64,000 nucleotides of DNA from Octopus sinensis (lineage: Eukaryota), in assembly GCF_006345805.1 (NCBI RefSeq), contig NC_042998.1, positions 143,034,001 to 143,098,000 on the forward strand, written 5' to 3'. This document shows positions 4,896 to 59,103 of this stretch, in pieces. Positions within the stretch are counted from its first letter, which is position 1, and every line of letters begins with the position of its first letter. The position numbers and the translations under genes were made by a program. A model generated the notes under the pieces. The model was not told the origin of the DNA, ran no database searches, and saw only the letters and a list, made by a program, of their open reading frames with translations.

Positions 4896-7800
4896 TTCAT
4901 TGCAAGTCAATCCCATTTGGGCAGACTTATGATCAAAGGGAATTGCAGCCATGACCATCCAAAGTTTTTCTGTGTACAGCAAATCCAGGACCATTTTAAC
5001 TAATGTACATGTTTTTTAAGACAGTAGATTTGTGATTTGAGGGAGATTTGGCAAGTCAAGCAAGCAAAATACAAGCTCATGCTTAATAGTGATTGTGGTA
5101 TAACATGTACATCTCAATATCTTTTCTGAGCCATCTTTCTCTTTCTCTCTCACATTATGTCCACTCCATACTAGTATTTTTCAAACCACACCTCCATCTT
5201 TGTTTATTACTCCCTACATTTACCTCTACCCCCATTTCTACCCATCATTTACTCTCCTTTCACATCACTTTGTATCTTGAGCTGCTCTGGCATTTAGTCA
5301 CTACCACATCTATCTTCTTTCCAGTTATTCTCACCCACCCTTATGTAATGTAGTGTTGGCATGTATCCCCTGTATAGCAAGACACCTGAGCTTTATCCCT
5401 CCGTCTTACTTCTTAGCCTCCACACCTGGCATACAACCATCTCCCCACTCTCGATATCCCTCCTCCACTTAGTTGTGGGGACTTTTTCCTGTTCTTTCTT
5501 GCAAGTTACTTGGTAACCTCACTAGTGTTAATGTCACAAGAAAAGCACCAGTACACATTATAAAGGGTTGGCATTAGGAAGGGTGTCCAGTCATAGAAAC
5601 ATGCTAAAATTGACATTGAAGCTCAGTACAGCCCTGCAGCTTGCCAGATCCTGTCAGACTGTCTACTTTCCATGCTGGCATGGAAAGTGCACATTAAATG
5701 ATGATGTAGTGTTTATCTGTATGTCCCAGAAACTAATCGAAAAGATTTATGTTGCACAGATGCAGAAGAATGAAAGAAAGTGAGAGAAAAAGACTAAGTT
5801 ACATCTATATATACCTACATGAAACTTATGGACATATACAGATATGTATACAGATATGTGTAAATGTTAGGGTTAATAAGTACTTTACATTATAAAGTAC
5901 CCAGTCCACATTGTAAAGTGGTTGGCACTTGGAAGCACATCCAGCTTTGTCTGCGCCTATATACATATATGTATGACAAGCTTGTATCAGTTTTCATCTA
6001 CTGAATTCACTCGTCAGGTTTTGTCAGCCTAGAGGTAGAGTGGAAGACACTTGCTCAAGGTGTCATGCAGTGATACTGAACTCAAAACTGTATGGTTTCA
6101 GACATAACTTCTTAACCACATAACTATGCCTGTACCTAACATTATGCAAGTTTTTTTGGCTATAAAATATTCTATTCTTTTTTTCATATAAGTCTAAGAC
6201 CCTTGGCTACTAGAGATAAAATCAGACAATTGTTATACTGATGACGGCTATTTTGCCAGAAATTTGTGTCCACAACTATCCTCTTTTTTTCATACAATAA
6301 ATCTATCCTTTTTCATATCAACTTTGGAGAATACTTGAATCTTGAGAATATCTTCCCTTCTGAAGTGGAGTTTATCTTAATTGCTATTTGGTAATTATGA
6401 TACCTCTTCTGGACACACAGATAATTTTAATAAATCAAAAATTTATGTTGTATGACATCTAGTGTACCTGTAGTTGTCTTTATATGCACACACATACATC
6501 CATAAACATTGAATTGACACACATACACAAAATGAATTGTGATACAGTTTGTTTAAAAACCTCATTTATTATGTGCATACTTGTCCTACTTACATCTTTA
6601 TTTATATTTTATTTCTAGGTTGGATTATCATATAATATCACGCCTATGTTTGCTTGCCAGTATTAGGCAGCTAGCCAATTTTTGCAAATATAGTATATTA
6701 CATAACGTTTGTTCAAATTATTTCTCATGCACAGCTCTGAGTCCCTGCAGGGTTTTGTGGTATTCAGAATATGACATTGTACTCTTTCTGTCAATTCACC
6801 TGCCTTCATATTTCCCTCCATCTATATTAATAATGTATTTATTGTTGTTTGAGAAATTCTATAGTTCTTGACAACTAAAGATTCTTTTGTTGTTTTGGTA
6901 TCTGATTGTATCATGGAATCTCTTCAAATATCTGTTTTCTACAGTTCTATGTTTAAGAAATGGGGAATTATGTACATTATTTACGATTGACGGATATTTG
7001 TCCTCATCTTGTTTGTTGTTAACACAATGTTTCGGCTGACATACCCTCCAGGTGTCTTGGGGAAATTTCGAACCTGGGTTCTCATTCCTAAGGCATTTTT
7101 TGATGTTGTTGTTGTTGTTTTCTGACTACTCGGAAAAACTGGCAAGTCTTATAAGTGATGGTAGCTAGAGCAAGGTAAATAAAGACCCTACTTTGAAAAC
7201 AGAGAGGAAGTTGTCACAGATCTTGATCAAGAACAAGGATCACTTTACACCAATGAAGTACAGACAACTGACTCAACACTACAGTAAACTACCACACATT
7301 TACGGTCTTCCTAAGATTCACAAAGATAGTATTCCATTAAGACATATAGTGAGTTGAAGAGCTTCAGCATGAGATCCACTGAGCCGCTTCCTTGTGGATA
7401 TAATCAGTCTATTAGCAGGAAAGTCAACATTGTACGTGAAGAATTCCACCCACTTCACAGAACTGATCAAAGATACCCCCATTGAATGCAACCAAATGGT
7501 GAGTGTAGATGTGATAAGTCTGTTCACCTAAGTCCCAACTGGTGAAGCACTATCGGTGATTCAAGAAAAACTAGTGACAGACACCCATCTAAAAGAACAC
7601 ACTAGTATACCAATTAGAAACTTGATAGAAATGTTGACCTTCTGTGTAGAAACTACCTACTTCAGTATGGACACTGATATATATCGACAAGAAAAGGGTT
7701 TAGCTATGGGTTCACCATTATCACCAATAATAGCCAATATATACATGGAATACTTTGAGAATTTGGCTTTAGGATCAACACCACCAAAACCAACCTTATG

Positions 7801-8657
7801 GCGGTGATATGTTGATGATACCTTCATACTCTGGCCCCACCAGGAAGATGTCCAAGTGCTGTTAGATCATGTGAACTCAATAAAGCCTTCCATACAGTTC
7901 ACAATAGAAAAAGAAAAAGACAATCAGCTAGCATTCTTGGACGTATTAATAACATGCACCAAGTATGGATTCAGGACATCCGTATAATGCAAGCTGACCT
8001 TCACTGGACGACACCTCAACTACAACTCCCACCATCCATACAGTGTAAAGAGAGGGACTGCTCAGTGCCCAAAACATCGAGCAATGAATATAAGTAGCAA
8101 TCGTGATACCCACCACGAAGAAATGATCAAGCTCAGTAACAATCTATTAAGCAACAACTACACCAAAAGCATACTCTCCACTCCAATTATGAAGAAAAGA
8201 GAGGATGAAACCGATAAACTGTCCACAGTCTGTCTGCTCTATGTGAAAGGCCTCTCCAAAAAGATACCAAAGATATGCGGCCCATATAACATCAGGACTG
8301 TATTCAAAAGTAATACAACACTTCGCAAATATCTCCTTTGAGTAAAACCACCAATAGAAGAGAATATGACTAAGAACTGCGTGTACTCCATCCCACGCAG
8401 CTGTGGTAGCTTATACAAAAGCGAAACATGTTGCCCCCTCAAAATAAGGGTAGAGGAACATCGCAAAGCTGTGAAAGGAGGAGATCATGTATGGAAATTC
8501 ACTGGAAAATAAGAAAACTAAAAGAAGCAGCACATATGCTAGGACACAACAACCTCCTAAGCAGACCAAGTGCAGATATGAACAGCATATGGGAACTGGT
8601 ATTAAAGAAGGATAGGAGAATATTAGATTTATAAGCCCTAAAATTCACTCCATAATT

Positions 8658-8726
8658 GCCCATGGTGTAGTGGTTAAGAGTGCGGGCTACTAACCCCAAG
8701 ATCCCGAGTTCGATTCCAGTGACCTG
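8658..8726 (+). other. tRNA-like segment with Pol III A and B boxes inside the Penelope 3' region
   Basis: A box TGGTGTAGTGG (8663-8673), 7-nt loop CTACTAA, B box GAGTTCGATTCC (8706-8717). No intact acceptor stem, so not a functional tRNA. Confidence 0.6.
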
Positions 8727-8798
8727 AATAATAATTATAATAACAACAACATCGAAAAATACCTTAGGAATGAGAATGCAGGTTCAAAATTCTCCAAG

Positions 8799-8843
8799 AC
8801 ACCTGATAAAGGCTGGAGAGTATATCAGCTGAAATGTTGTGTT
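8799..8843 (+). ncRNA. Degenerate type I hammerhead ribozyme in the Penelope pLTR
   Basis: ACAC-CTGATAA-A-GGCTG..CAGCT-GAAA-TGTT-GTGT. The inverted copy at 7021-7055 reads CAGCC-GAAA-CATT-GTGT, implying an ancestral GAAACGTT. G8 is mutated in this copy. Confidence 0.65.
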
Positions 8844-10194
8844 AACAACAAACAAGATGGATTAAATATCTGGAATCATGTTCTTACGAACCACATGGTT
8901 CCAGGTTCAGTTCCACTGCATGGCACCTTGGGCAAGTGTCTTCTACTATAGCCTCAAAGCCTTGTGAGATGGAAACGGAAAGAAGCTCGCCATATATATT
9001 TATATATATATATATATGTGTGTGTGTCTGTGTTTATCACCCCCCCCCCCAACATCGCTTGACAACTGATGCTGGTGTGTTTACATCCCTATAACTTAGC
9101 GGCTTGGCAAAAGAGACCGATAGAACAAGTACTGGGCTTACAAAGAATAAGTCCTGGGGTCGATTTGCTCGACTAAAGGTGGTGCTCCAGCATGGCCACA
9201 GTCACATGACTGAAACAAGTAAAAGAGTAAAGAGTAATGTAAATAATGTATCTGTTTTCTGTTTCTTTCTTGCTTCAAAAAAACAATTCATATAAGAAAT
9301 AGAAATAGTCATATTTGATGTGAATCCAACTCTTGTTATATTACATATTGCCCAAATATTTTATCTGTTTTTATGTTCAAACAAGCCAGATCTGGTCTCT
9401 CACACCTATCCTACAATGTTATTCTAAAAATGCAACAATAACATTATTGAACTCTCAAAGTTAATTCAAAACAATGTGAAAAAATAAGTTCTGTGTTTGA
9501 TAGAAAAATCTGAATGCTAAAAGGTTAATGACTATTTTTCCATGCTTGCATGGGTCACACAGTGATTATTGAGGCAGATTTTATACAGCCAGATGCTCTT
9601 CCTGTCAACAGCCCTTACCTGTTTCCAAGCAAGGTGTTCATTAAATATCTTTACAGCTTGCACAATTTATTGTATCGTCTAGATGTTTGCAACCAATGGA
9701 ACCCAAGTGGTAATGTTCTGATGTTTCTAATAAAACTACTCTGTTGAGTTACCCTTATTTTTCATTTTTTTTTTCAAATTGTAAAGGCAATTTATGGATA
9801 CCCTGTATTTTACCTTGGTTGATAGGTTTTACATAGAAGACTGGTAATGAATAACATTACCTGCATGATGGTAATGATGCTTGTTTACAACCATTGCATG
9901 ATGATGAGACAAAAGTACACACACACACATATTGCTAACGTGATAAGAATTTAGAAACTTGAGAGAATGTGAATAATTCAATTTTCACAGTTGAATTAGA
10001 CAAAGCTATAAATAAAAAGCTTGTAAATATTGGGTTAAAATACCTTTTGAAGAGAAAAAAAATCAAAGGTTTCAACATTTTCCATCCAGAATATTTTTTA
10101 ACCCAATACTTACTTACTATTATTTACAGTTCTATCTACTTTAATTTCACTTGTGAAAAATGAATTTGTGTGTGTGTGCTTGCGTGCGTGCATG

Positions 10195-11443
10195 TTAGGT
10201 TGCTCCGAAAATTCTGAGCATTTTTAAGCTAAATCTTTTAACGCTTCATTGAACACACCTGAAACGTAACACAACCAAAACTTTGGCATTGCTTGAAGTG
10301 GTAGTGCATCTCTTTGTTCCTGGCTAAAAATAGATTTATCTTCCATTCTGGTTACCCTTTATTGACATTTGAAATGGATAGCCAAAAATTTCATATTCAC
10401 ATTGTAATGCTTTCCTTTTTCTAAAAAAAGGAGGAAATGCTGCAAAGACTTGTAAAAGCATTTGTGAAGTTTATGGTGATGATGCTGTAGGTGAATCAAC
10501 TGTTCGAAGGTGGATTGCAAAATTTAGAGCTGAGCAGTTTAGCTTGGAAGATGATAGTTGCAGTAGAAGACCTTCAAAATTGGATGAAGATGTTTTGAAG
10601 GCAAAAATTGAAGAAAACTTAAATATCATGACTAGAGAACTTGCAGAGGATTTGGAAATTTCTAAAAGTATGGCTTATGAACACCTAGTGAAGCTAGGAT
10701 ACATTTCTCACTATAATGTAAGGGTCCCTTGCAAACTCTCAGAAAAAATTGCTTGGACAAGTATTTTGTTTGTGATATGCTTTTGAAATGGAATGAAAGC
10801 CTGCCTTTTTTAAAACAATTTGTAACTGGAGATGAAAAATGGATTGTGTATGAAAATGTAGTGTGAAGAAGATCCTGGAGTTTGTGTAAGGATCCCCCAA
10901 AACAACAACCAAAGATGAATATCTATGCCAAAAAAGTTATGCTTTGTGTTTGGTGGGATCATAAAGGCATTATTTATTATGAGCTTCTCCTACAAAACTA
11001 GCCCATCAATTCTGATGTGTACTGTTGTCAGCTGGGTAATTTGAACCAAAATATCAAAGAATTGAGGCTGGAGATTACCAACAGGAAAGTGGTAGTGTTC
11101 CAACAAGACAATGCCCAACCACGTATCTTTGGCTACTCGAACAAAGGTACATGAGTTTGCTTGGGGTCTCTTAACCCATCTACCATATTCTCGTGATATT
11201 GTGTCATCTGGCTACCACTTGTTTTTGTCTCTACAGAACTCGTAAGAAAAAACATTTAACGATTTAGATGGAGTCAAAATACCAAATTTTATGCTGATTG
11301 AATAGTTAAATTGCCTGATAGATGGGTAAAGGTCATTAATAATAATGGAAATTATTTCATTGAATAAAATTTTTTGAAAAGTCAATTATTTATACCCCTT
11401 TTTGCATATTAAAAAAATGCTCAGAACTTTTTGAACAGCCTAA
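10195..11443 (+). mobile_element. Mariner DNA transposon, full length, transposase pseudogene (about 10374-11367)
   Basis: TIRs TTAGGTTGCTCCGAAAATTCTGAGCATTTTT and AAAAATGCTCAGAACTTTTTGAACAGCCTAA, followed by TA. Motifs VTGDEKWIVYEN, WWDHKGIIYYELL, QQDNAQP and PYSRDIVSSGYHLF. Stops and frameshifts present. Confidence 0.9.
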
Positions 11444-11551: not shown

Positions 11552-11681
11552 ATCAAAATAAGCAAAAAGGATATCCAGAGGTAATGCAGTACGATCGTTT
11601 GAAGAAATTCCATTTAACCATGGAGTTGCTTGAAATGATTGTACTGCATTACCTCTGGATATCCTTGTTGCTTATTTTGAT
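11552..11681. repeat. Fold-back element, 61-bp arms with an 8-nt loop, containing hammerhead 3' halves
   Basis: 11552-11612 is the imperfect reverse complement of 11621-11681. The arms read GAAATGATTGTA-CTGCA (+) and CAAACGATCGTA-CTGCA (-). Confidence 0.8.
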
Positions 11682-11864
11682 ATATATATATATTTATATA
11701 TATATACACACACACACATGCGCGAGTAAGCACATAAATGCAAAACAAGATGGAAGAAATAGCACTCAGATTCCAATGGTAGACAATTGCAGCGTGGAAG
11801 GTGTTTGTAAGCCATTTAAGAAACACACAAAAGCCATTCGATTCACTTCAACGTTTAAGTTTAA

Positions 11865-11915
11865 TTTGTCAAAATATTTTCGTCGCTTTAAGACCGCGAC
11901 CTGTTCACTGACAAA
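11865..11915 (-). ncRNA. Type I hammerhead ribozyme candidate, G3-C8 variant (minus strand)
   Basis: TTTGTCA-GTGAACA-G-GTCGC-GGTCTTAAA-GCGAC-GAA-AATATT-T-TGACAAA: 7-bp stem I, 5-bp stem II and palindromic stem III. Confidence 0.65.
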
Positions 11916-11928
11916 TGCAGCACGGATT

Positions 11929-11979
11929 TTTGTCAGTGAACAGGCCGCGGTCTTAAAGCGACGAAAATATTTTGACAAA
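11929..11979 (+). ncRNA. Type I hammerhead ribozyme candidate, G3-C8 variant (plus strand)
   Basis: Same motif as the minus-strand copy, with one stem II mismatch (GCCGC/GCGAC). Predicted cleavage after 11972. Confidence 0.6.
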
Positions 11980-13070
11980 TTAAACTTAAATGTTGAAGTG
12001 AATCGAATGGCTTTTGTGTGTTTCTTAAATGGCTTACAAACACCTTCCACGCTGCAATTGTTTTCGTTTCAGCAGACGATCTCAGATCAAATAACTTGCT
12101 ATGCAAGTACATCTCTGTAATTCCAATGGTAGAGCAATATGCTTTTCATTAAAGCCGAAAAATCTTTACAAACTGTTACTTAGAATTTCACATTGCTATT
12201 CATTAGGCAGTTGTGATCAGAGTATGATTGCCACTGTCCCATGATTGGTAACATGAAACTCCGAGTAACAATTTGTAAAGATTTGTTTTGGCTTTGATAA
12301 GTACATATGCACACATACTTACAGCAGGCTTCTTTCAGTTTCCACCTTATAAATCTACTCATAAGGTTTTAGTAGAATGCACTCACTCAAGGTGCTGTAC
12401 AATGGGACTGAAACTGAGACCGCATGGTTGTTAACCACACAGCAACAGTATGTATCTTAATAACTTGGTAAAAAGAAAAAGCAAAACAAAATTTAGTAAA
12501 TAAAAGAATTAATTTTTTAAAGTTTTTTTTTTAGTAATTATTGATTAAATTAGAAATTCTTTGCCTTATTAGTTTGAGAAGCAGATCACTAAGTGAATCA
12601 AGCAGTCAAGCATTTAATCTAGTTTAAAGCCATGTCAACTAATTTTTTGGTGAGCAGAGTCATCGGATGGAGAAAATGAAGATGGTGGGGGCATTAAGTG
12701 GGAAAGTCATATCATTAAAATAGAAAGAAACTGAAGTGGGGTGGAGTGTAGTTACCTTTAGGACGACATACTTGACTGAAAAGTTTTCTTTTCACTTGTT
12801 TCAGTCATTGGACTGCAGCCATACTGGAGTAACTGCCTCGAGGGCTTTTAGTTGAACAAATTAGCCTGACTGTTTTTTAAGTCTGGTAATTGTTCTCTCA
12901 GTCTCTGTTGTCAAAACGTTAAGTTATGGGGACACAAACAAACCAACACCAGATGTCAAGTGGTGGTGGAGGACAAATACAAAGATAAAGAAACACACAC
13001 ATTCATATATGTATATGTGCTTGTGTGTGTGTATATGTATGGTAGATGGAAGATACAAGAATTTTTATTG

Positions 13071-13176
13071 ATCACAACAATTGTTTCGACACATCAAGCA
13101 TCAATCCCTCATGGGTGGGGTACTTAGCAACTGGTTCAGGAGCATTTGACAGTACAGATGTGTCTCTTCAGGTGAT
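13071..13176 (-). ncRNA. Type I hammerhead ribozyme with a long stem II insert
   Basis: Minus strand: ATCAC-CTGAAGA-GACACATC-(61 nt)-GATGTGTC-GAA-ACAATTGT-T-GTGAT. The core is complete and the cleavage triplet is GUU. Confidence 0.75.
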
Positions 13177-13321
13177 AAATAGATACAACTTGCTAAAATA
13201 ACAGTTCCACAATGTATCTTCTCATTTTGTGTAAAGAAAAGCAGCAAATTAAAGGATATAGTATTGTTTGTATAGAAGATTGAAATTAAAATAACAGATG
13301 CAAAAAAGGAATGAACACGCA

Positions 13322-13377
<56 letters not shown>

Positions 13378-21625: not shown

Positions 21626-22093
21626 CTGTGTAACAAATTTTTTATGTTTGTCTTTGATCAGTGTTATTTCCTGTTTGCTTTTATTTAGAACTCAAGGTAA
21701 ATTACTACTATTCCATTCAAACTTTGCTTTTGTGTTTTGAAACTGACCTATTTTCAATTACATTTCAGACAGATTCAGTTCTGAGTTGCTGAAGCAGAAA
21801 TATCGTAATAGCAAATATTCCGCTCACACTCAATACCACAGATTTGCCTGTCAGTTGCTTGACCTTAACCACTTGAGCATGTCTCTTAGTGGCTGACAAT
21901 ATGTGCATCTTTGATCATGAGCTCGAGTAATGGGGGAGCATCCTAGCCATGTGTCGAAACGGATTCTTTGGGGTTTGAATAAATGTAACAAAAGCAGAGT
22001 TTGAAGGAAATATTAGTCAGTTTTCATAGTTTCTAGGGAGAAGCAAATAGGAAATAACAGTTACTACCCAAGGACAAAAATTGCATGACACAG
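21626..22093. mobile_element. MITE with about 110-bp imperfect TIRs
   Basis: Ends CTGTGTAAC.../...TGACACAG with inverted GTTATTTCCTGTTTGCTT/AAGCAAATAGGAAATAAC and TTCAAACTTTGCTTTTGT/ACAAAAGCAGAGTTTGAA. Second copy at 42407-42891. Confidence 0.75.
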
Positions 22094-28961: not shown

Positions 28962-29571
28962 GGAGTAAAGATTTTTGCCAATATAACATAGCAGTCCTGG
29001 TTTAGGATGAATGTTGCTGTAATTTAGCCCCAGGAGACATCGTCTCCAGCTGGCTATACGACGTGATCTGTGTCCTTGTATTTTCGAACAAGGGAATCTA
29101 GCACCCCAACTCAGTTCAAAACAATATCTGTGTATTGCGATTTCCAGGTTATTTCCCTTCATCAGCACAGGATAATTGTTCGGCTTGAGGTGGCGCTGCC
29201 AAATTCTTGTTCGAAATATACAGTTTTCAAAGTGACAGCTAGTCATTGATCTATAAATTAGAAAATTACTATTTTTATATCTCACAATGAGAGATATTCA
29301 GCAACAGTACTTTGGAGTAAAGATTTTTGCTAACATAACATGGCAACTGGAGACAATGTTTCCTGGGGCTAAATTACAGCAACAATTGTCCTAGACCAGG
29401 ACTGCCATGTTATGTTGGCAAAAATCTTTACTCCAAAGTACTGTTACTGAATATTTCTCGTGAGATTTAAAAATAGTAATTTTCTAATTTATACATCAGT
29501 GACTAGTTGTCACTTTGCAAACTATATATTTTGAATGGGAATTTGGCAGTGCCACCTCCAGCTGAACAATT
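28962..29571 (-). mobile_element. Non-autonomous hammerhead-bearing element (retrozyme/pLTR-like): 352-bp monomer + partial repeat + inverted copy
   Basis: The first 32 bp of 28962-29313 recur at 29314-29345. 29346-29571 is the reverse complement of 29174-29313 joined to 28962-29050. It abuts a truncated family B SINE. Confidence 0.75.
29128..29170 (-). ncRNA. Minimal type I hammerhead ribozyme
   Basis: Minus strand: CTGTG-CTGATGA-AGGGAAATAACCTG-GAA-ATCGCAAT-A-CACAG. Perfect 5-bp stem I, near-palindromic stem III, weak stem II. Confidence 0.7.
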
Positions 29572-38243: not shown

Positions 38244-38334
38244 CATCCGGATAGATCTCTGCAACGAGCGGCTACAGCTTCTCCATAATATCCAGAAGGA
38301 ATACATACAGGAGCGAGACAAAGTGAAAAAAGAG
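38244..38334 (+). CDS. JMY: JMY/WHAMM coding exon 3
   Basis: TTTTAAAG|C...GAG|GTAAGA. Encodes RIRIDLCNERLQLLHNIQKEYIQERDKVKKE. Phase 2 to 0. Confidence 0.85.
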
Positions 38335-38476
38335 GTAAGATTTTAAAGATCATTAATAAGTAGACCCATTTCTTGAAAATTTTTAACCTTTTTTTATGAT
38401 ACCCATTGAATTATGTCAAATCATCCTACCCATGCTAACATGGCAAATAGACATAAAATGATTTTACAAATACATA

Positions 38477-40299: not shown

Positions 40300-40465
40300 A
40301 TTGCATCTGTCAAAGAGTATCCTGAGGCCAAAGCAGAACTAGAGAAACTTGAAGAAAAAGTGTTCAATTGGACCCTTAAGATCCATGATGTATGTGTTAA
40401 AATTCTTGATGAAGAAGAAATCTTGGCAAAAACACAGATTGATGGCATTCTTAAGCAAGTACAAG
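40300..40465 (+). CDS. JMY: JMY/WHAMM coding exon 4
   Basis: CATCCTAG|ATT...CAAG|GTTGGT. Encodes IASVKEYPEAKAELEKLEEKVFNWTLKIHDVCVKILDEEEILAKTQIDGILKQVQ. Phase 0 to 1. Confidence 0.87.
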
Positions 40466-42053
40466 GTTGGTTTGTTTCATCATCTTGTTTACTCAGGATG
40501 GGAAATGTTAAGGTTGTATTTGAGGATTATATTTCAATAGTCTTGACTATTGAAAAGGTTGCAAGATGCATAAAAAATTTTAGGAAAATAAAAATAAGAA
40601 ATAAGTGCAAATTTTACCGGTGAGTGTGTTAAATTATAAGGCATAAAAAGAAAATGACTCTCCCCAGACACAACAGAATTTGCTTCAACACACGAACTCT
40701 AAAGAATCTTGCAAACCAAATCCAAAAACGAAATTATGTGATAAATTAATTGTAAATATTGGTGTTACATCTAGTATTTATCTGTACGAACTCTTATCAT
40801 ATTATTATAAGGAAAATGATTTAGCTAAAGATTTATTTGCATACACTTTATGAAGTTATACTCAAGCTTTTGTCAACGAGAGAATACAGTCAACCCAGTA
40901 TGAAGAAACGAAATAACATTCTTAAGATAAACATGACTTCCTAATTTCACTTTCAGATATCCTCACCTTGCTATTAAAAACACATTTTCTTAACCTTTTT
41001 AAACTGTCTTAAACATACATGCCAAACACCGTTATGAGTGTATATTACTTCTAACAATCTGTTTACACCTCATTACTTCTAGCATTCTGTCTACACCCCA
41101 CAACTAAATGATTGATAACTTGACATAACCACCAACATCCACACCATTATACTTTTGATCTGATTAACTTTTTTTTTTATTTAAAAAACTCTTTTGACAA
41201 GAATCAATCATGAAGTCTTGAGCCCTGCAAATTTCTTTGTAAAAAAGTTTATTATCACAAATAATATTACAAATGTTATAAATATGCAAAACCAGGTTAC
41301 CGAGAAATGATTACTTTCCTTACAAAGATTTCTACCCAATTTCTACACTTGTCACCTACTATTCCTTCTTTATCACTCCTTACTACCTGTTCTTCATTTT
41401 ATTCACCCTCTCACCCACACTTCCAGTTTTTCTGTCCCCATTCAGTTCTACTCGTTTTGTATCTTGAGGGTCTATCCTGACACCTCATCACCACAATGTT
41501 TACCTTTCTCCAGCTCCATCCTGACTGCTCTCACCTATTTCTTTATTATGTGTGTAGCCATGTAGCAGGTGGGTGGGTCCGTCCATTCATCCACCCATGT
41601 CTTGATATCATGAGATGGTTGTAAACAAGCATCATTGTCATACAACTGGTGTTATTTGTTTCCACACTTCTGTGGAAAACGTGCCTGGCCATGGGGAAAT
41701 ATTACCTTATTTGGAAACAGGTGAGGATTGGTGACTAGGAGGGCATCTGACTGTAGAATAATATGCCTCAACAGATTCCATTTGACCTGAGCAAGGCTGG
41801 AAAAGTGGATGTTAAAATGATGATGATGATCATGAGAAACTTAAGAGCAGAGAAGCAGATGTGACATGTAGGGTACAATCATTAAGTTCTGGAAAACTTA
41901 GTTATATAAATGTTAGCATGGCTAATGAAAGTCACTCTGGGAGTTGAAGGTATAAAAAGGTCCTTTTTTTGTTTCTTTTTATAAAAGTAATAATGAATTT
42001 TATGTGATGACAGTCACACTATACTTACACACATTTTTTTTCTGATTGGTCAG

Positions 42054-42220
42054 ATGAAGAAGAAGCTGGTGTTTTCTATGATGCATTTGAAGATGCAGAA
42101 AGTTTGAAAGATTATGATGAACCAATGACTACAGGAGCAGTATCTAACCCGCACTTGCAGCATCTAAAAAGTCAGATAAACCGTATCCAACAGAAGAAAG
42201 CGTCTTTTCGAAACAAAAAG
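42054..42220 (+). CDS. JMY: JMY/WHAMM coding exon 5 (GC donor)
   Basis: GGTCAG|AT...AAG|GCAAGT. Encodes DEEEAGVFYDAFED...IQQKKASFRNKK (compare JMY VVYYDTYE and KKSYLRNKK). Phase 1 to 0. Confidence 0.85.
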
Positions 42221-42406
42221 GCAAGTTTTTTTTCTTTTATTCACTGCAAAATCAAAGTTGGTCAAGTTCATAAGTTCAGTTACAATGACTTAGACTGCAG
42301 GGATTTTATTTATTTTTGTAGGCTATAAGGGGCAATAGGAATGTAGGAATAAGGAACAATACCCATAGTTTTTGCAGCCTCTCTGAGACCAGTGAGAATT
42401 GTTACA

Positions 42407-42891
42407 CTATGTAACAAAATTAAAATTTTTTTTTTTTTGTCTTTGGTCAGTAAGTGTTATTTCCTATTTGTTTATATCTAGAAATCAATGGAAATAACTA
42501 TTTTTCCCTTCAAACTTTGCTTTTGTGACCTGGACATCAATGTTTTGAAACTGACTTATTTTCCATTAGATTTCAGATAGCTTCAGCACTGAGTTGATGG
42601 AGCAGAAATATCATTATAGCTAATATTCTGCTCAACCACAGATTTGCTTGTCAGTTGTTTGACTTTAATCACTTGAGCATGTTTCTTAGTGGTGGACAGT
42701 ATGTGCATCTCTGATTGTGAACAGGAGTAGTGGGGGAGCATCATAGCCATGTGTTGAAAGGGTTTCTTTGAGATTTAAATAAATGTAAGAAAAGCAAAAT
42801 TTGTAGAAAATATTAGCCATTTTCCATACTTTCTAGTGGTAAGCAGAGGAAATAACAGTTACTACCCAAGGACAAAAATCGTGTTACACAG
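42407..42891. mobile_element. MITE, second copy of the 21626-22093 family
   Basis: Same TIRs and internal sequence (CCACAGATTTGC...GGGGGAGCATC). Confidence 0.75.
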
Positions 42892-44204
42892 AGTTATTAT
42901 TTTAATTCAACTTTCCTAAGCAATGCTTTGAATGAACTTGATATCAACCAAGGTGACATTTTGCTTTTCACTGCATCAAATAATTATAACTTCCAGTATT
43001 TAATCACATTATTATGGGTGTGGTAGTGTTTTTGCCTGTATAATTTCATATTACTGCTACAACTGTTTTCAAAGCTGAATTATATCGTCATTTATAACTA
43101 ATAAACTGTAATATTATTGTTTTTGTTGACATTCTGACCAGTTGCTCTGCACTTTCAAATATCTGTGAATTATAAACATCATCATCATCAACCCCCTAGA
43201 CATTACTATCTCAAGTATTAGGACTCGTAAGGCTAAACACCTGGTTTTCATAGCATATATGTGACCAAGATCACCACATTTCACCTGAACAGAAAGCTAG
43301 TTGCAGGGTTACACATTTACAACTAAGTAAACTGGAATAATGTGAAATGAAGTGTTTTACTCAAGAACACAAGCACTGTCCAGTTTGGGAATTGAAACTG
43401 CGATTTTGTGATTGTGAGTGCAACACTCTAACCACTAGGCCATGTGGTTTTACAATACAAAAAATATTAAAAATCCCATTCCTGAAAAACTGGTAAGATT
43501 TGTCAACAGGGAGAGTATCTGACCTAAAACACTCTCTCAAATAACCCCTTCCCCTGTTCAATTCATAATAGCTTTAAAGAAATGAATGAACTTTGTGCCT
43601 CATTGCATGAGAACTTGATTTGATTTGAGAAGAATTCATCATGAAATATTTAGTATACTGACCTACTTCTTAATTCTATAGTTTAGTTCACCAAATCACT
43701 GTCCCACTTTAAAATCCAACATAGTGAGTTTGTTTCAATTATATTATGTAATTAGCTTACTAACCGTAGCAATTGCCAAAATCTGTTTTCCCTAAGGAAA
43801 AATTTGACAGTTGTATTAGAATGTTAAGTGGCTTATAAACAAGCTACTTATTGTCTTGCTCAAAAATAATAGTTTCAATCTTTCCTGCACTGATTGATTA
43901 GAGAAGTAAATAAAGTTTGTTTGCTTTTTAAAATAAAAATGTCTCTAGAGACCTTATATTTGATTTGTAAGCTAGAAAACCTTTCAAATTTTATTTATAT
44001 ACTGCCGTGAAATGTAATTTTCCCCTAATGACTACCAATTAAAAATGTAGGTTAGCATAAAATATATGGGTGGTCATTGCTCTTTGCACTTGACTCTAAC
44101 TAGTTTCCATCATTCGACTGTGGCCATGCTGGTGCACTGCCTTGAGGGGTTTAGCTGATCAAATTGAAAAGAACAAGCAAAAATGGATCTATCATGTCAC
44201 AGTA

Positions 44205-44592
44205 TTTAATGCCTTCATTGCCATATTTCTGTTAAAATACACTGCCTTTGTTTCAATTTTAATTTTGAAAATAATGAAGTATTTTATAAAATAACTGTAT
44301 CATTATTAAAGTGATGTTTGGAAAATAAATTAGCATGAAATTTTGATGGAAGGTTTTAATTTAGACCACTTTAACCTTTTTATCGTCATATTTCTGTTAA
44401 ACTAAACTACCTTTGTTTCAATTCATTTTGACAATAATAAAGAATTTAGGATAATAAATATGTCAATAATAAGTTGGTGTTTGGGACCTAGATTAACACG
44501 AAATTTTAATAGGTGTAAATTTAGATCACTTTAAAATAAGGAATTTGTATCAATGAACTATGGTTAATCTCAGACAAATTGATAAAGGTTAA
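44205..44592. mobile_element. AT-rich MITE-like repeat with an internal tandem duplication
   Basis: CATATTTCTGTTAAA...TTTAGA(C/T)CACTTTAA occurs twice. Related copies at about 25600-25960 (-), 27600-27730, 46215-46530 and 63953-64000. Confidence 0.55.
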
Positions 44593-45528
44593 AGACAATA
44601 GGTGAATGGTATTAGTACAGTTGACACTAGGAGAATAGACTAGATTATGGAGCAGACTAAAAATGAGTTAGGGTGACAACTTCACCTGCTACTTGGGATC
44701 TACATGGACAGGAATGACCGGAGCTAAATGTTGGTGAAGACACCTAAAAGAGGATCCCTCTTCAGGAGTAATGCTAGCACTGGAACTTAACAACAAATAA
44801 CAGCGGACCAATGCAATAAAGTAAACAAAGCTGAAATATTTTTATATTTAATCAAGGTCATCACTTTAGAATGTTAATGATGTCTTTGATTGAAAATACA
44901 TCTGGTAGACTAATTAGTAATTTACTTATTGTTAAATTTTAATATTACATTGTGTGCACCAGACATGGCTGTGTGGTTAAGAAGTTTGCTTAGCAACTAC
45001 ATGATTTCAGGTTCAGTCCTAGCATATGGTTGATTGGGCTGTGTATTCCACTAGACATCCTTTTAGGCCTCAAACCATTGGTCCAGCAGAACATTGAACG
45101 TATGACAACTGGAGAGGAAGTGAGGGCTGTGCCAACAGTCAGCTGATTCTCATTTTCAGCTGACCAGACTGAAGCAATGGGAAATGTAGTACTTTGCCCA
45201 AAGACACAATGTACACCCAGTTCAGGAATTGAACCCAAGACCTTATGATCACACACATTCACAATAGGCTTCTTTCAGTTTCCATCTATCAAATCCACTT
45301 ATAAGGCATTGGTTGATCTCTGGGGCTATAATAGAAGACACATGCTCATGGTGTTATGAAGTGTGGGATTGAACCCAAGACCACATAGTTAGCAAACAAG
45401 CTTATTAACCAGACAGCCATGTTTAGTCTAAGTGATCTCTGACATTTTGGCTGGCTCGCCTTTGCCACTTTGCTACTTATAACTAATTGAACTGTTTTGT
45501 TGATTAATAATTGTCTTTGCTGCTGCAG

Positions 45529-45615
45529 GTATTGTTACTGAAACAAAAACAACAAAAAGATGAAGAAAAAACTAAGATGGAGGTCCATTACCAGCAACAT
45601 CACACAATACAGCTT
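45529..45615 (+). CDS. JMY: JMY/WHAMM coding exon 6
   Basis: CTGCAG|GTA...CTT|GTAAGT. Encodes VLLLKQKQQKDEEKTKMEVHYQQHHTIQL (compare JMY HHTVQL). Phase 0 to 0. Confidence 0.87.
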
Positions 45616-46598
45616 GTAAGTCTAGTTCTACCCTATCCCCCCTACTCTCGCCTGTCTTCACTCTTTTGCTGCTTCCACTTTCTCTCTGTCTTCTCATTCC
45701 TCTTATTTGTGTCCTCTTTCTTCTTTTCTCTTGTCTGTGTGTGTGTGTTTCCTTTTCTGACTCTATAAATCTATGTATGTCATCATTGTCATCGTCGTCA
45801 TTATCATTATCATCATCATCATCACTGTTGTCAGCATCATTATCATTATCATCTTTGTTGAAATGTCTACTTTCTCATGCTTGCATGTGTCAGAAGGAAT
45901 TCATTGAGGCAAATTTTCTTAGGCAGGATGCCCTTCCTACCAGAAACCCTCATCTGCTTCCAAATATTTTTTCCTTGGCTGATTATGTGCTTATGGGAAA
46001 TTGAAAATGGACAAGCATCATTTGTAAGACAGTGATTTTTGATCACAATGATTGCATGATGACAAGACAATGACACACACACACACTCTCTCTCTCTCAT
46101 ATATATATATTTATATATATATATATATATATATATGATGTGTTTCTTTCAGTTTCTGTCACTTGCCCAAGGTGTCATGCAACTGTCTTCTACAATAGCC
46201 TATTGATCACTCGAGCCCTTTTGTTACCATATTTCTTTTCTACTATACTGTCTTTGTTTCAATTAATTTTGTCAATAATAAAGAATTTATTTAAATAATT
46301 TTGTCGTTATTGAGCTGATGTTTGGAATATCAGGGGGCGGTGTTTGTATTAGAAGGGTTAATACAAGAAAGGCCATATTGGATGACATAGTACTGGATAT
46401 GCTTTGTTTGGTACTAAGCTCGTATTTGGAACATGGATAAACATGAAATTTTGTTGGTAAGTTTTAATTTGGATCACTTTAAAATGGAAAGTTTGTATTG
46501 TAGAATCAAGAATGGTCTCAAGCAGCTTAGAACATTCCAAAGTCTTTAAATTATTCAGTAACAGTTCAATTCCTATAAATTACCTTTTTTATTCACAG

Positions 46599-46694
46599 AA
46601 ACGTCGACAACATAAAGAAGAAGTGGATTCCAAACAGGAATTTATTCAGGAAGAACGCAGAAAAGCCATTAAGCGTCTCCAAGATTATAAGTTG
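46599..46694 (+). CDS. JMY: JMY/WHAMM coding exon 7
   Basis: TTCACAG|AAA...TTG|GTAAGA. Encodes KRRQHKEEVDSKQEFIQEERRKAIKRLQDYKL. Phase 0 to 0. Confidence 0.88.
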
Positions 46695-47519
46695 GTAAGA
46701 ACCTTTTTGCATCCATTCTTTAATCCAATAATTCCTTATCACAATAATTGCTGTTCACTCTCTAGCTTGTATCATGATGACTATTCTGTTATTAAGGCAT
46801 ATTTTTACTTGATATCTGCTGTGTTTCTTTAATAATATTTTTTCATCGTGGTACTATGGAGCTATTATACATTGGCTGCTCCATGACCTTGGGTTTCATA
46901 GACTTAAACCTGCATGGTAACTTTACTAGTACCAGTGATATGAAGAAACCACTCAGTATATTCTAGTTAATGTATCTTTTATCTATCTCTTGTTTCAGTC
47001 GTCGTTTGGCTGTGGCCGTGCTGGGGCACCACCTCGAGGAGTTTTAGTTAAACAAATTGACACTAGGACTGTCTTTAAAGCCTAGTATTTATTCTATTGG
47101 TCTCTTTTGCCAAACCACAGAGGTACAGGGATGTAAACACACCAACACTGATTGTCAAATAGGTAGGGATGGGGCACAAACACACAGCACAAAGTACACA
47201 CACAAATATATATATATGATGGGTTTCCTTCAGCTTCCTTCTACCAAATCCACTCACAGGGCTTTGGTTAGCCTGAGGCTATAGTAGAAGACACTTGCGC
47301 AAGATGCTATGCAGTAGGACTAAACACGGAACCATGCAGCTGAGAAGCAAGCTTCTTATCACACAGCTATGCTTGTGCTTGTATTTAAATTAATATTATG
47401 TTTCTTATCGTTTGCAATTTTCAAATCTGTTTAAAGTTGTGGCAGGGCAGTGGTGGGGTGGGATGGGGGGAAGTGTTTCTATTCTGTTCTGTTCTTTTTA
47501 TTTTTTACTTTTTCTCTAG

Positions 47520-48267
47520 AAATATCCGACACCATCTACAATCAGGCCACACAAGTACCAACCTGCCCACTCACAGAAAAGACCAGTTGCTAATTCCAAC
47601 TCACTAACTGCTTCACCAGACACTCATCCTTTAACACTGAATCTTCCAGAACCTGACAGTAAAAATTCTACTGCTAATCCTCTTAGTCAGTCATGGAGGA
47701 AGCATAACAAGAGAAAACAGCAAACAGATTTTGACATTCAGATATTTCAGTCTGGTGCTGGAGCTGTAAAAGACAGTAAAAGTCTTAGCAAAGAATCAGG
47801 ACTTGGTGAAGAAAAAGCAGTCACCAACGAAGAGAAGTTAATCTCGTCTCCTTCACTGTCTCCGGCTGCGTCGTCATCCACCGCCACCACTTCGCCAGAA
47901 ATCATCTCGGACGTATCACCACCAACAGACATTCTTCCTCCCACACTCACCCCTCAACAAGTCCCCTCTGTGTCATCGGTGCCCCCGCCACCGCCCCCAC
48001 CCCCACCCCCACCTCCTCCGCCCCCTCCGTTACCTCCTCCCACACAACAACAGCAGAAAGCTCCTTCGTCGGCACCTGATAGTAATAACAAAGAGGACAG
48101 AAAGAAAGTATTTATCAAAAAACAAACTGCTTTAAAAGACTTAAATGGACATTCTGCTGACTCTACCAGAGCACCGTCGGTCATTCCAAATCTGGAGAGC
48201 ATTTTAAGTAGTAAGAACCGTCTCAAGCCAGCCAGCCGACACATAAAACCACCACCCCTCAAACAAG
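47520..48267 (+). CDS. JMY: JMY/WHAMM coding exon 8 (Ser/Pro-rich linker, polyproline, WH2-like motif)
   Basis: TCTCTAG|AAA TAT CCG (KYP, compare JMY RYP). Open frame through polyproline to LESILSSKNRLKPA. Donor G|GTACTT. Phase 0 to 1. Confidence 0.87.
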
Positions 48268-48429
48268 GTACTTGTATTCTTTTTTTGTGTTTTCACTTCT
48301 TCACAGAGAAATCAATAATGCTGTTGCTGTTTTTGTTGTTATCATTGTTGTAAACTTCACAGCTTGAGTCACTGTGTAGAACGCCAATGTTCTGAATACA
48401 GTGTGAGTCCACGTAGTTCTGGATATGCT

Positions 48430-48670
48430 GAAGAACCCCTATAGCTTTTGGTACAGTGTAGACTTCAACAGCTTGGGTTAGAATATAGACTCTACAGCTG
48501 TGGCTGCAGTGTAGACCTGCATACTTATGGTCACAGTATAGATCTGTACAGCTTGGTTTGCAATGTAGACCTGTACAGCTTTGGTCATAGAGGAAACTTG
48601 TATAGCTTGGTTTCCAGTATAGACCTCCACAGCTTACATACAGTGTAACCCCGCTCCACAGCCTTGAGTA
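48430..48670. repeat. Degenerate minisatellite, about 27-bp unit (AGTGTAGACCTGTACAGCTTGGTTTGC), about 8 copies
   Basis: TAGAC...CAGCTT recurs at about 27-bp spacing. Confidence 0.7.
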
Positions 48671-48763
48671 CTGGCTATATATATATATATGGATAATAGA
48701 ACGAATGGTTTACACTTGGTAGCTTACTGGTAAAGCACGGTCACTTTCAGAGTGATTGTTAGG

Positions 48764-48964
48764 TAAATAACAAGTGAAAGACACAAGATGGAATATACGA
48801 GAAAATTTATTTATCACCTGACAAGATACGTCTGCACCACTAGTACTCCTGAACCAGTTGTTGAGTGTCCCACCTAAGAGGAGTCGATGCAAGATGTGTC
48901 GAAACAATTGTGATTAATAATAAATTCTGGTATATTCCATCTTCTGTCTTTCATTTGTTATTTA
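48764..48964 (+). mobile_element. Inverted-repeat-flanked degenerate hammerhead element, same family as 13045-13180
   Basis: ATCAC-CTGACAA-GATACGTC...GATGTGTC-GAAACAATTGT-GAT, flanked by about 45-bp inverted repeats at 48764-48810 and 48917-48964. Confidence 0.7.
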
Positions 48965-49171
48965 TATATAGATATGTATATATATTCTTTTACTTGTTTC
49001 AGTCATTTGACTGTGGCAATGCTGGAGCATTGCCTTAAAGGGTTTTATTAGAAGAAATCAAGCCCAGGACTTATTCTTTGTAAGCCTAGTACTTATTCTA
49101 TCAGTCTCTTCTCCTGAACTGCTTGTCAAGTGATGGTGAGGGGACAAACAAAGACACACACACACACACCC

Positions 49172-49636
49172 ATATATTAAAAATGGGGAAGGCTGGTTTA
49201 TGGTATTACCTTAGGTTTCCTGTCCATAAAGGGTTTATCTTTATGGCGTATCATAAGATCCCAAAACCCCGTTGGCTCATGACCTCTTAAAAGTATGGAG
49301 GGAGAAATGCCTCACTGCTCAATGGTAACAATTGGGGATTATCTCCCTTCACTATTGGCTATCAACTTCCAGCCGTGCTGCCATCTTGTGGGCTCCAAAA
49401 ACCTAGCAGGGACTGGATCCCAGAAGATAGCGGCACAGCTGGAAGTGCCTGCAGCAAAAGGAGTAATCCCCAATTGTTACCTTTGAGTAGTGAGGCATTC
49501 CCTGCCACTCCATATTTTTAAGAGATCATGAGCCAACAGGTTTTGGGGATCTGACGATACGCCATAAAGTTAAACCCTTTATGGACGTGAAACCTAAGGT
49601 AATCCCATAAACCAGCCTTCCCCATTTTTAATATAT
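49172..49636. mobile_element. Fold-back element, about 225-bp arms with a 16-nt spacer and a hammerhead in each arm
   Basis: 49172-49397 is the imperfect reverse complement of 49414-49636. It sits in the CA/TA microsatellite of a family B SINE. Confidence 0.85.
49546..49606 (+). ncRNA. Type I hammerhead ribozyme with an intact core, on the sense strand of the last JMY intron
   Basis: GGGAT-CTGACGA-T-ACG-CCATAAAG-TTAAACC-CTTTATGG-A-CGT-GAAA-CCTAAGG-TA-ATCCC. GUA triplet, predicted cleavage after 49601. Confidence 0.78.
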
Positions 49637-49699
49637 ACTGCTCTACATCTTAGAGTGTGCTTTTTCTTTCAGATTTATGTTTTTTACAAACGATATGTT

Positions 49700-49738
<39 letters not shown>

Positions 49739-50697
49739 GATGGGCTTTTTTCAGTTTCCCTCTAGCCAATCCACTCACAAGGCTTTGGCCAGCCCAAGAC
49801 TATGGTAGAAGACACTTGCCCAAAGTGCCATGCAGTGAGCCTGAATCCAGAACCATGTGGTTTGGAAGCAAGCTTCTTAGTACACAGCCACATATGTATA
49901 TATATATATATATTTATATGTGTTTGTATATATGTGTGTATGTGTATACAGTTAGATTTACAACTGCTTCTGGTGAATTTAGAGTATCATCATCCACTCT
50001 AGAGTATAGTGATGTTGTTAATACCATACTTAGCAGTATTACAGGTTATAATATACAGAGCAAATTTAGGACAAAACATGATAAACACAAGATGCTGATT
50101 ATACCATTTGTTGTCAATACAGAGAAGAAACCCAAACATATTGAAAGGTGGTGCCGCAGCATGGCCTCAGCCTCTGGCTGAAACCAGTGAAAGATAAAAG
50201 ATGTATACATCTCTCAAAAATCATCAAAGGCCCTTCCCAAGTTATATAGGCTCATAAGGCCAGTTTCTTGGATTCTGTGGCACATATATTTCCCACCTGG
50301 ATGGGATGCTACTCTGTTGCAGGTTTATTCACTTTCATAGCTTAGTGGACTGGAGCAGTGTGAAATGAAGTGTTTTGCTCATGAACACAACACATTGCAC
50401 AGTTCAAGAATCGAAACCACAATCTTACAATCATGAGTGCAAACCCACACACATGCCATGCTTATTACTCTTAGACTCCAAATTTTGAAAGGTGTGAGTG
50501 TTTATGTATGCATGGTTATGTGTGTATATACCTGCAAATGTATCTCTGTATGTGTGCATATGCTTATATGTGTACTGCATATTTGTATGTTGTACATTTC
50601 TATACCTATTACTGATGTTTGTCTAGTTATAACAGCTAATATATAATTATTACAATTACTAATATTCCCTTTTTTCTTTACTCTTTCATTTTTCTAG

Positions 50698-50915
50698 ATC
50701 CCATGGATGACATTTTAGATATGATCAAGAAAGGCGTCAAGTTACGCCCAACTACAGAACGGGACTCTGGCTGTGAACGTGGTTCTCCTTCACCGATTCC
50801 AAGCGACTCTCATCTGAAACTACTTCAGGAGAGTCTTAACCGAATCAATCGATTGACTCGTGACAGTTCACCTGAGTCTGACGACAGTGATTACGACAAC
50901 TTTGATGATTATTAA
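50698..50915 (+). CDS. JMY: JMY/WHAMM terminal coding exon (WH2 - central - acidic)
   Basis: TTTCTAG|AT. Encodes DPMDDILDMIKKGVKLRPT (WH2), HLKLLQESLNRINRL (central helix) and ESDDSDYDNFDDY before a TAA stop. Phase 1 matches exon 8. Confidence 0.9.
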
Positions 50916-52823: not shown

Positions 52824-52879
<56 letters not shown>

Positions 52880-53692: not shown

Positions 53693-53727
<35 letters not shown>

Positions 53728-57420: not shown

Positions 57421-57890
57421 GAATATATTTATGTAAACTCATTCCTATATTCTAAACCTATCTTGTTTTAGAATAACAGTCTTATTTAGTTGGATATTTG
57501 CTTGAAAATTTTTTAGCAATATTAATATTTTGCAATGTCTTAAATTTTGAATATTTTATTTCTTGTTTATATTATTTTATATTTTTTCATTCTTTATTCT
57601 GAAGGATGGTCAGTCGTTAATTTGTTTAATTTTTATATATTCACTGCAATAGGTTTTGTCATTAAGTTTCATGTTGCTCCAGATTAGGGAATTTTTGAGA
57701 TAAACACACAATGCATTGGAACAATAACTATGCACTTTGGGCTGTAACCAATGCATGCAAGTCAAATAAAAGATTGTATGTTTTTATATTTAAAATGGCC
57801 ATAATGCATACACAAACACACATACACATGCACACACATGCATGCGCACGAATACATGCATACATACATATGTATATGTGCATGTGTGTG

Positions 57891-57924
<34 letters not shown>

Positions 57925-57939
57925 ATCATTATATATATA

Positions 57940-58579
57940 TATATATAATGTATGTGTGTGCATGTGCATATGTATGTATGTATGTATATATATATATGTC
58001 ATCATCATCATCATCATCATCATTTAACGTCCGCTTTCCATGCTAGCATGGGTTGGACGGTTCAACTGGGGTCTGGGGAGCCCGAAAGCTGCACCAGTCC
58101 AGTCAGATCTGGCAGTGTTTCTACAGCTGGATGCCCTTCCTATATATATGTATGTATTTATATATATATGTATGTATGTATGTATGTTTTTATTTATATA
58201 TATATATGTATGTATGTATGTATTTATATATATATGTATGTATTTATATATATGTATGTATGTATATATATATATATATAATGTATGTGTGTGCATGTGC
58301 ATATGTATGTATGTATGTATATATATATGTCATCATCATCATCATCATCATCATTTAACGTCCGCTTTCCATGCTAGCATGGGTTGGACGGTTCAACTGG
58401 GGTCTGGGGAGCCCGAAAGCTGCACCAGTCCAGTCAGATCTGGCAGTGTTTCTACAGCTGGATGCCCTTCCTATATATATGTATGTATGTATGTTTTTAT
58501 TTATATATATATGTATGTATATATATATATATATGTATGTATGTATTTATATATATGTATGTATTTATATATATGTATG

Positions 58580-58600
<21 letters not shown>
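57940..58600. repeat. Tandem duplication with a 331-bp period (family C tail + TATG/TA microsatellite)
   Basis: The non-microsatellite parts, 58021-58140 and 58352-58471, are identical by eye. Confidence 0.9.
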
Positions 58601-58611
<11 letters not shown>

Positions 58612-58764
58612 AGCACAATTAAAGGTTACAAACCTCATTCAGGGATAGCAAAATCCTATGAAAGCACTGGTTAATTACCTATACAAAGTATGTTGAACAT
58701 CATATTTAATACTCCACTGCAAGGTAACTATATAAACTGTGGTTTATATATATATTTTATTTAT

Positions 58765-59097
58765 TATAATAATAAGATGAGAGAATAGTAAAGTAGTTAA
58801 TAAATTATTATTTATCAATTAAAAAATTGACAAACATCCCTTACAGCTGTTTTAATTCACGCTCTCAGAAAATTAATTAATTAAATTAAAAATTATTTGA
58901 AAGCTGAATCTCTTCAGAGGTAGATAAAGGTATACAAAGTAGGCATTCAGTTTCCTCATATTGAGTAAACAGCTGAGGAAATTGAACACCTACTTTGTAA
59001 ACCTTTATCTGCCTCTAAAGAGATTCGACTTTCAATTAATTTTTAATTTAATTAATTAATAAATATTGATTTATTAATTACCTTTCTATTCTCTCAT

Positions 59098-59103
<6 letters not shown>
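58765..59103. mobile_element. Fold-back element with a degenerate hammerhead (minus strand, 58838-58920)
   Basis: Inner arms 58872-58958 and 58974-59058, plus outer inverted repeats at about 58770-58815 and 59059-59103. Minus strand reads CCT-CTGAAGA-GATTCAGCTTTCA...TGAGAGCGTGAATT-AAA-ACAGCTGT-A-AGG, with G12 mutated. Confidence 0.7.

Follow-up and report, generated by a model that had tools for sequence, protein, structure and literature searches.

We analysed a window of 64,000 nucleotides from Octopus sinensis (NCBI RefSeq assembly GCF_006345805.1, contig NC_042998.1, positions 143,034,001 to 143,098,000; all positions below count from its first letter). The JMY gene lies on the plus strand, with exons from 33410 to 50912, and the open reading frame (ORF) at 33344-34270 is 99% identical to the JMY-like protein of O. 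bimaculoides. The window otherwise consists of repeats, microsatellites and transposase remnants. An earlier note on this DNA had described some of the repeats as unrelated mini-elements, each carrying a type I hammerhead ribozyme and mobilised by Penelope elements. Site-by-site reading identifies nine motifs with both halves of a type I hammerhead, distributed over six unrelated families. We hold with good confidence that these repeats carry minimal hammerheads of the Penelope type, likely inserted by a Penelope reverse transcriptase-endonuclease, and that one very abundant family keeps a G3:C8 core pair for which weak self-cleavage is predicted. This G3:C8 swap, in the core of the element at 11783, is the least ordinary feature here and was overlooked earlier.

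Motif positions are quoted as that of core base 3, and sites are read outward from the centre of each fold-back. The order stem I, core box 1, stem II, GAAA, helix III, UH and returning strand of stem I is present in all nine motifs, which occupy six of the seven sites previously listed as sharing it. The seventh, at 11552, holds only the 3' half: each arm of a near-perfect hairpin carries GAAA, a palindrome and UA, a CUGANGA half in register is missing, and this copy is ruled out as a hammerhead. BLAST reveals no similarity between families except 13071 with 48764, in agreement with the claim of six unrelated families. The core is intact in five motifs and broken in four, by A8 at +8803, A8 plus a deletion at +48818, U5 at -49257 and A12 at -58917. 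The CUGANGA core supposed to be common to all is intact, with C3:G8, in three of the nine (-13171, +49551 and -29165), while the 11783 pair (-11908 and +11936) reads GUGAACA; the statement that each element carries a ribozyme fails for 11552 and for the four decayed motifs. The motifs fit the published consensus in having an extra base between positions 9 and 10.1 (six of nine), a palindromic helix III and a U-rich 5' flank. Helix III is a perfect palindrome at 11783, 13071 and 58917, an odd-length one at 49551, and has one mismatch at 8803 and 29165; such palindromes would permit dimer formation.

Two descriptors, both written after the sites had been seen, were used to compare the motifs with chance. 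The strict one, modelled on the published consensus, finds three matches in the window, none in the reversed window and a mean of 0.036 per shuffle over 500 block shuffles, none of which reaches three matches and one of which contains a G3:C8 match. The scored search finds four matches at a score of at least 11, compared to none in 30 shuffles and none in the reversed window, where the best score is 10.5. With scrambled cores on the real sequence, 0 of 150 reach four matches scoring at least 11, and two gave a single match above 13. The hammerhead shapes are for the most part genuine, in numbers well beyond chance. The weaker sites are individually non-significant (8803 scores 5.4, and 29165 and 58917 are missed), and the decayed sites rest on their context. 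Two candidates inside the control range were dismissed: -42559 (score 8.4), and 6238, which had set the start of the earlier range at 6230 and has a core and stem II only, lacking helix III and stem I. An Rfam search of the window and of 11750-13350 returned no hammerhead; its microRNA matches were dismissed as hairpin and microsatellite artefacts, and a search for tRNA genes found none.

Table 1. Coordinates of hammerhead-bearing and related features in the window.
Feature	Positions	Strand	Remarks
Penelope 3' repeat copy, inverted and internally deleted	7005..7116	-	81% to 8739-8859; only the 3' hammerhead half kept
Penelope-like ORF, decayed and 5'-truncated: reverse transcriptase, then start of GIY-YIG-type region	7118..8509	+	7 in-frame stops
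Minimal type I hammerhead in 3' repeat, decayed (A8)	8798..8843	+	Same motif at related loci L002, L003
130-bp hairpin element	11552..11681		Each arm holds a hammerhead-like 3' half only
Target-site duplication, left copy	11770..11783	+	14 bp
Inverted arm of G3:C8 family, without tail	11784..11915	-	98.5% to direct arm; intact motif 11915-11865, G3 at 11908
Direct unit of G3:C8 family, ~204 nt	11916..12119	+	Motif 11929-11979
Target-site duplication, right copy	12120..12133	+	14 bp
Old fold-back (73%)	12148..12298		Possible hammerhead remnants on both arms, non-significant
Repeat copy with fully intact hammerhead	13044..13322	-	Hammerhead 13176-13071, C3 at 13171; left homology edge 13044, right edge approximate
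More-than-unit copy of a ~352-nt non-coding unit (minus strand) plus truncated inverted copy	28962..29571		Hammerhead 29170-29128
Decayed 13071-family member in last JMY intron	48764..48964	+	79% over 142 nt to 13044-13184
465-bp fold-back in last JMY intron	49172..49636		Intact core at +49551, mutated copy at -49257
Fold-back between microsatellites, second arm internally deleted	58765..59100		Decayed hammerhead at -58917

The complete motifs of the 11783 element, one on each arm, carry the core GUGAACA in place of CUGANGA. They have an extra G, a 5-bp stem II closed by G-C, a stem I of 7-8 bp and a helix III of AAUAUU, which confirms the AATATT read earlier; in the direct unit G3 is at 11936 and C8 at 11941, with the cut predicted after 11972. 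The stretch 11784-12119 has the features that define a Penelope insertion, namely a one-sided tail (58 nt, 12062-12119, right arm only; 30-40 bp is the range in the published material available), a head-to-head inversion and a target duplication. All fold-backs in the window are head to head, with their 3' ends outward. The lowest-energy fold predicted for the left arm (11784-11915) is the hammerhead junction itself. In fold prediction the hammerhead stems have a probability of 0.92-0.99 in an intact arm alone versus 0.0 in the whole fold-back transcript, and the genomic fold-backs are therefore likely silent. At the tail start (12060-12072) a pyrimidine run followed by CAG looks like a splice acceptor; introns can occur within Penelope repeats.

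Family-level evidence comes from contigs of runs X1, X2, X4 and X10, aligned on 11900-13260 at 80% likeness. The single-copy flank has depths of 49, 53, 8 and 18 in the four runs, and the 11783 arm reaches a summed contig depth of 0.8-3.7 million, falling to ~500 past 12130 in X1. Summed contig depth is not a copy number, and overlapping contigs may overcount up to ~30-fold; even with such an overcount, the 11783 family would have thousands of copies. By the change counts, G>C occurs at one place in X1, X2 and X10 (12075) and at two in X4, and every C>G place lies away from core C8 in all four runs; of the 112 variant rows, 40 are listed. The canonical G8 therefore stays below 10% in four runs and C3 below 10% in three. 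Over ~490 nt of single-copy flank, X10 and the window disagree at 25 places, and variants standing at ~50-60% in the other three runs are close to fixation in X10; the G3:C8 state is nevertheless the same there. Position 11945, a C in the window, is T in ~99.6% of the depth, and T restores stem II. No core position of the 11783 or 13071 families (two of the six) is among the rows listed, and the majority alleles at 11945, 13096 and 13154 restore or extend stem II, an outcome that favours conservation of core and stems, the check proposed in the earlier note. Depth at 11912, 12 nt from the edge of the aligned stretch, is below 1% of that at 11927, and the exact 11783 fold-back junction appears to be a minority form. 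The G3:C8 family pattern has no match in metagenome contigs; the sole match of a looser pattern, viral locus L001, was dismissed as no stem I closes at its junction.

The second abundant family is that of 13071, in which the motif at -13171 has a stem I of 5 bp, a stem II of 8 bp and ACAAUUGU. It is repeated, with bins of ~10,000-69,000 depth in X1 and contigs covering 13044-13260 at 80-85% identity, and its majority alleles at 13096 and 13154 are those that lengthen stem II. In the related motif +48818 base 8 is A and 3 nt are deleted at the cut site. The two copies differ upstream of the motif: 48764 joins a 54-nt inverted copy of its own 3' end at stem I, and 13071 continues into other sequence. 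This difference and the apparent rarity of the 11783 junction mean that the fold-back is mostly not the mobile unit that it had been taken for. The joint in 48764-48964 falls at the stem I complementarity, as if a cDNA end had snapped back there, in a single case.

The connection with Penelope is seen within the window at 7005-8860. The ORF at 7118-8509 matches RVT_1 (E 3.7e-10) and is 67% to a relative, P0034, to which its GIY-YIG-type region also aligns; another relative, P0092, has GIY-YIG at its C-terminus, and a Pfam search of the decayed ORF did not find GIY-YIG. Judged by these alignments, the element appears to have the canonical order of endonuclease-bearing Penelope-like elements, a reverse transcriptase followed by a C-terminal GIY-YIG. 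The hammerhead at +8803, 3' of the ORF, can form both stem I and stem II, with A at base 8 and AUGU as helix III; the inverted copy 5' of the same ORF (7005-7116) is without the CUGANGA half. A 3' hammerhead repeat with an inverted 5' copy is a layout described for Penelope-like elements in the accessible part of bioRxiv 2021.04.23.441226. Among nine related Penelope loci from metagenome contigs, the motif is 3' of the ORF in L002 and inverted upstream in L003/L004, apparently a single locus in two assemblies; the remaining six have no strict match. Helix III is ACGU at the motif-bearing loci, which backs the AACGTT reconstructed earlier for the site at 8799. The proposed Penelope link is thus upheld by a motif in the 3' repeat of a decayed Penelope, by the same motif at related loci and by the abundance of two families.

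The 28962 element has a self-BLAST period of 352 nt and comprises ~1.1 units with a single motif; at -29165 the core is intact, stem I has 5 bp, stem II is weak (G.G at its base) and helix III has one mismatch. At +49551 the core is intact, with a stem I of 5 bp and ACCUAAGGU, and the inverted copy at -49257 carries U5. Transcription of 49172-49636 within the JMY intron would yield a long double-stranded pre-mRNA, a possible target of adenosine-to-inosine editing. At -58917 G12 is replaced by A, with 6 bp in stem II and 3 bp in stem I. The arms of the old fold-back at 12148-12298, which is not among the sites listed earlier, hold GAAA, a near-palindrome, UA and degenerate CUGAUGA-like boxes, and their differences resemble CpG decay; depth there is low at 80% likeness, and a seventh family is possible. 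The conserved bases C11.1 and G12 form a CpG step, and T at 11.1 or A at 12 is seen in several of the decayed motifs (8830, 49588, 58854-58853), which would fit methylation-driven decay. A dinucleotide run lies within 15 nt of 7 of 17 element ends, compared to 8.5% of random positions (P ~3e-4), an adjacency to microsatellites above the chance level. The density given as about one per 8 kb comes to ~1 per 9 kb for seven loci in 64 kb, and the loci are clustered.

The overall system is already known from work of 2014. Cervera and De la Peña (PMC4209133) described minimal hammerheads in Penelope repeats, with several families per genome, opposite-strand pairs 100-700 bp apart that derive from truncated elements, and 56 representatives with C3-G8, U3-A8 or U3-G8 cores; these hammerheads cleave poorly, dimers included. 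The octopus motifs share with them the type I topology, the 9/10.1 extra base in six of nine, the palindromic helix III, the location in flanking repeats, the several unrelated families per genome and the spacing of opposite-strand pairs. Fig. S3 of that paper includes motifs whose helix III is longer and goes with A17, and others that lack the extra base; the supplement, in the portion available, contains no cephalopod and no GUGANCA core. Natural covariation of the 3-8 pair, which 11783 shares, was reported by Perreault et al. 2011 (PMC3088659), whose accessible text names U3-A8 only and not G3-C8. Animal non-long terminal repeat retrozymes (PMC7229834) likewise are short non-coding units with a type I hammerhead, and their size (350-390 bp in mussel) includes the 352-nt unit at 28962; their hammerheads are canonical, unlike the minimal motifs of the window, and the hallmark of a retrozyme, an array of two or more units that each hold a complete hammerhead, is absent from the window. 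Retrozymes have been reported as non-autonomous Penelope derivatives (Li et al., bioRxiv 2026.07.22.740005). The repeat annotation of O. vulgaris (PMC13282606) lists 31 recently active Penelope-like families and, in the text at hand, does not mention ribozymes. We found no literature report of an octopus or cephalopod hammerhead, and for the G3:C8 core only engineered variants, in a search that did not cover the survey of Lunse et al. (RNA Biol 14:1499), which may hold G3:C8 or octopus cases. The new point is a very high-copy animal repeat family fixed for G3:C8.

A mechanistic parallel can be drawn with Poseidon PAc of Anolis (Frangieh et al. 2024, PMC11167929, as far as its available sections go). 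PAc cuts and extends both strands and reverse transcribes from two sites bounding the tail, using mainly unprocessed RNA. Its ribozyme is protein-assisted; cleavage is partly regained in a C3G/G8C double mutant, and mutation of the ribozyme does not prevent insertion in vitro. The octopus elements share with it a one-sided tail, an AT-rich target and a hammerhead near the 3' end of the insertion, and extension of both strands would explain the head-to-head copies. PAc differs in being autonomous and in having a C3-G8 core; G3:C8 is there an engineered rescue and here the natural state of a family.

The motifs, fold-backs, decayed ORF, target duplication, tail, family abundance and G3:C8 state of the family are direct observations, and from the insertion features and the Anolis element we infer how they may have arisen. 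A Penelope protein would nick both strands of AT-rich DNA in a staggered manner (14 nt at 11783), and each nick would serve as the primer for copying the element RNA into cDNA, with two start sites that bound the tail. Both cDNAs would end at or before the 5' end of the RNA and then join head to head, giving a fold-back with its 3' ends outward and the tail on one side only. Because inserted copies contain the 5' half of the ribozyme, the template would be uncut RNA or tandem or circular RNA. Trimming of the source transcript would fall to the ribozyme, working either as a dimer held together by the palindromic helix III or with the aid of protein. Where a host transcript reads through a genomic fold-back, the ribozyme is predicted to be locked in double-stranded RNA and therefore silent. 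The majority of copies are relics in decay. The G3:C8 swap is predicted to keep partial or weak self-cleavage, and we consider the chance that the motif cleaves itself a little better than even.

Several observations weigh against this reading. A clear target duplication is present in one of nine elements (11783) and in none of the other eight; duplications of at least 7 bp were sought in seven of the other elements, shorter lengths lying outside the search, and none was found. Five of the six families stand without a demonstrated autonomous partner. The G10.1-C11.1 pair is retained by only four of the nine motifs, with G.U in two, A-U in one and a mismatch in two. Neither the 11783 element nor the Penelope copy adjoins a microsatellite. 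As to the activity of G3:C8, the all-A-U helix III of the 11783 motif has a dimer duplex energy of only -0.2 kcal/mol (-6.4 at 13071, -8.2 at 49551 and -2.3 for a partial duplex at 29165), its base 17 is U, and its inserted base is G, in contrast to the H of the published consensus. One of the two G>C places in X4 is not localised, and with 40 of 112 variant rows listed, G3 could be A, or C8 could be U or A, in a subfraction of copies. Selection on cleavage is not assured, given the poor cleavage of minimal hammerheads even as dimers and the insertion of ribozyme mutants in vitro.

The best-surviving alternative, which we regard as a real possibility while leaning away from it, invokes the same enzyme and denies separate short units, with all families being only the 5'-truncated, inverted ends of ordinary autonomous Penelope elements. 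That description holds for 7005-8860, and PMC4209133, in its available text, reads scattered single and opposite-strand motifs in this way. Upstream of the motif, the sequences of the two 13071-family copies diverge, and other 11783-family copies could extend 5' of 11916. Truncation accounts less well for the 28962 unit, which repeats at 352 nt with no recognisable coding between repeats (only a 114-aa stop-to-stop frame, for which no homology search was made), and for the 11783 unit, where four of the five joints upstream of the motif end, among those listed (a listing that gives no kind of joint and to which 56 further rows belong), lie at 11915, 11919 and 11922 and hint at a fixed short 5' end. 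The report of animal retrozymes as non-autonomous Penelope derivatives also argues for short units.

Somewhat less probable, and in our view unlikely, is a dead hammerhead: two substitutions in a master copy would have hitchhiked as the family spread without needing cleavage. Insertion by ribozyme mutants in vitro (PMC11167929), the weak helix III of the 11783 family and the uncut 5' half in inserted copies are all compatible with this, and a young expanding family would retain all master bases whatever their function. Yet the two changes are exactly complementary, with the nine other core bases and both stems intact, and the G3:C8 state extends to X10, which is diverged from the window and nearly fixed for variants of intermediate frequency elsewhere.

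Miniature inverted-repeat transposable elements (MITEs), which are non-autonomous DNA transposons, have inverted repeats at both termini and a short fixed duplication, and this is not the arrangement at 11783. That the fold-backs are MITEs and the hammerhead patterns by-products of palindromic AT-rich DNA is very improbable: long inverted repeats, mariner-type transposase remnants in the window, the symmetry of 49172 and 11552, reversed-control scores up to 10.5 and the lack of an Rfam hammerhead match speak for it, whereas the reversed-sequence and scrambled-core controls retain hairpins without yielding the matches, the right inverted repeat at 11783 stops 58 nt inside the 14-bp duplication, and the 11783 junction seems rare in the depth data (again at 12 nt from the aligned edge).

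On the preferred reading, Penelope-driven insertion of minimal-hammerhead repeats, cephalopods join an association that is already known, a result of modest interest; the G3:C8 family carries more weight. Insertion in vitro did not need cleavage; if the G3:C8 RNA cleaves, it would provide natural evidence that the 3:8 pair of Penelope hammerheads is under selection, and counts made with CUGANGA descriptors would overlook entire families. With its target duplication, tail and inversion, the young 11783 copy gives a way to examine two-strand priming across many copies in the genome. A speculative and rather doubtful extension is that octopus genomes harbour thousands of copies or more of a ~200-nt non-autonomous Penelope parasite, resembling a short interspersed element, with an active hammerhead naturally fixed for G3:C8. 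Neither CUGANGA descriptors nor Rfam would detect such a parasite; its insertions would preserve the trace of double priming on the two nicked strands and would supply host introns with sources of long double-stranded RNA.

Other repeats complete the window. Copies at 21635-22093 and 42424-42891 of a 460-bp element are 80% identical, have terminal inverted repeats of ~95 nt and no convincing hammerhead, and are more MITE-like. Another family, at 25606-25939, 27219-27730, 44205-44558 and 46205-46509, is partly tandem and inverted, with no descriptor match. Decayed remnants of mariner/Tc1-type transposases lie at 10382-11370, 30008-30927 and 38589-39452, and 57860-58612 is a 331-bp tandem duplication of a microsatellite and a common short repeat, in 2.3 copies.

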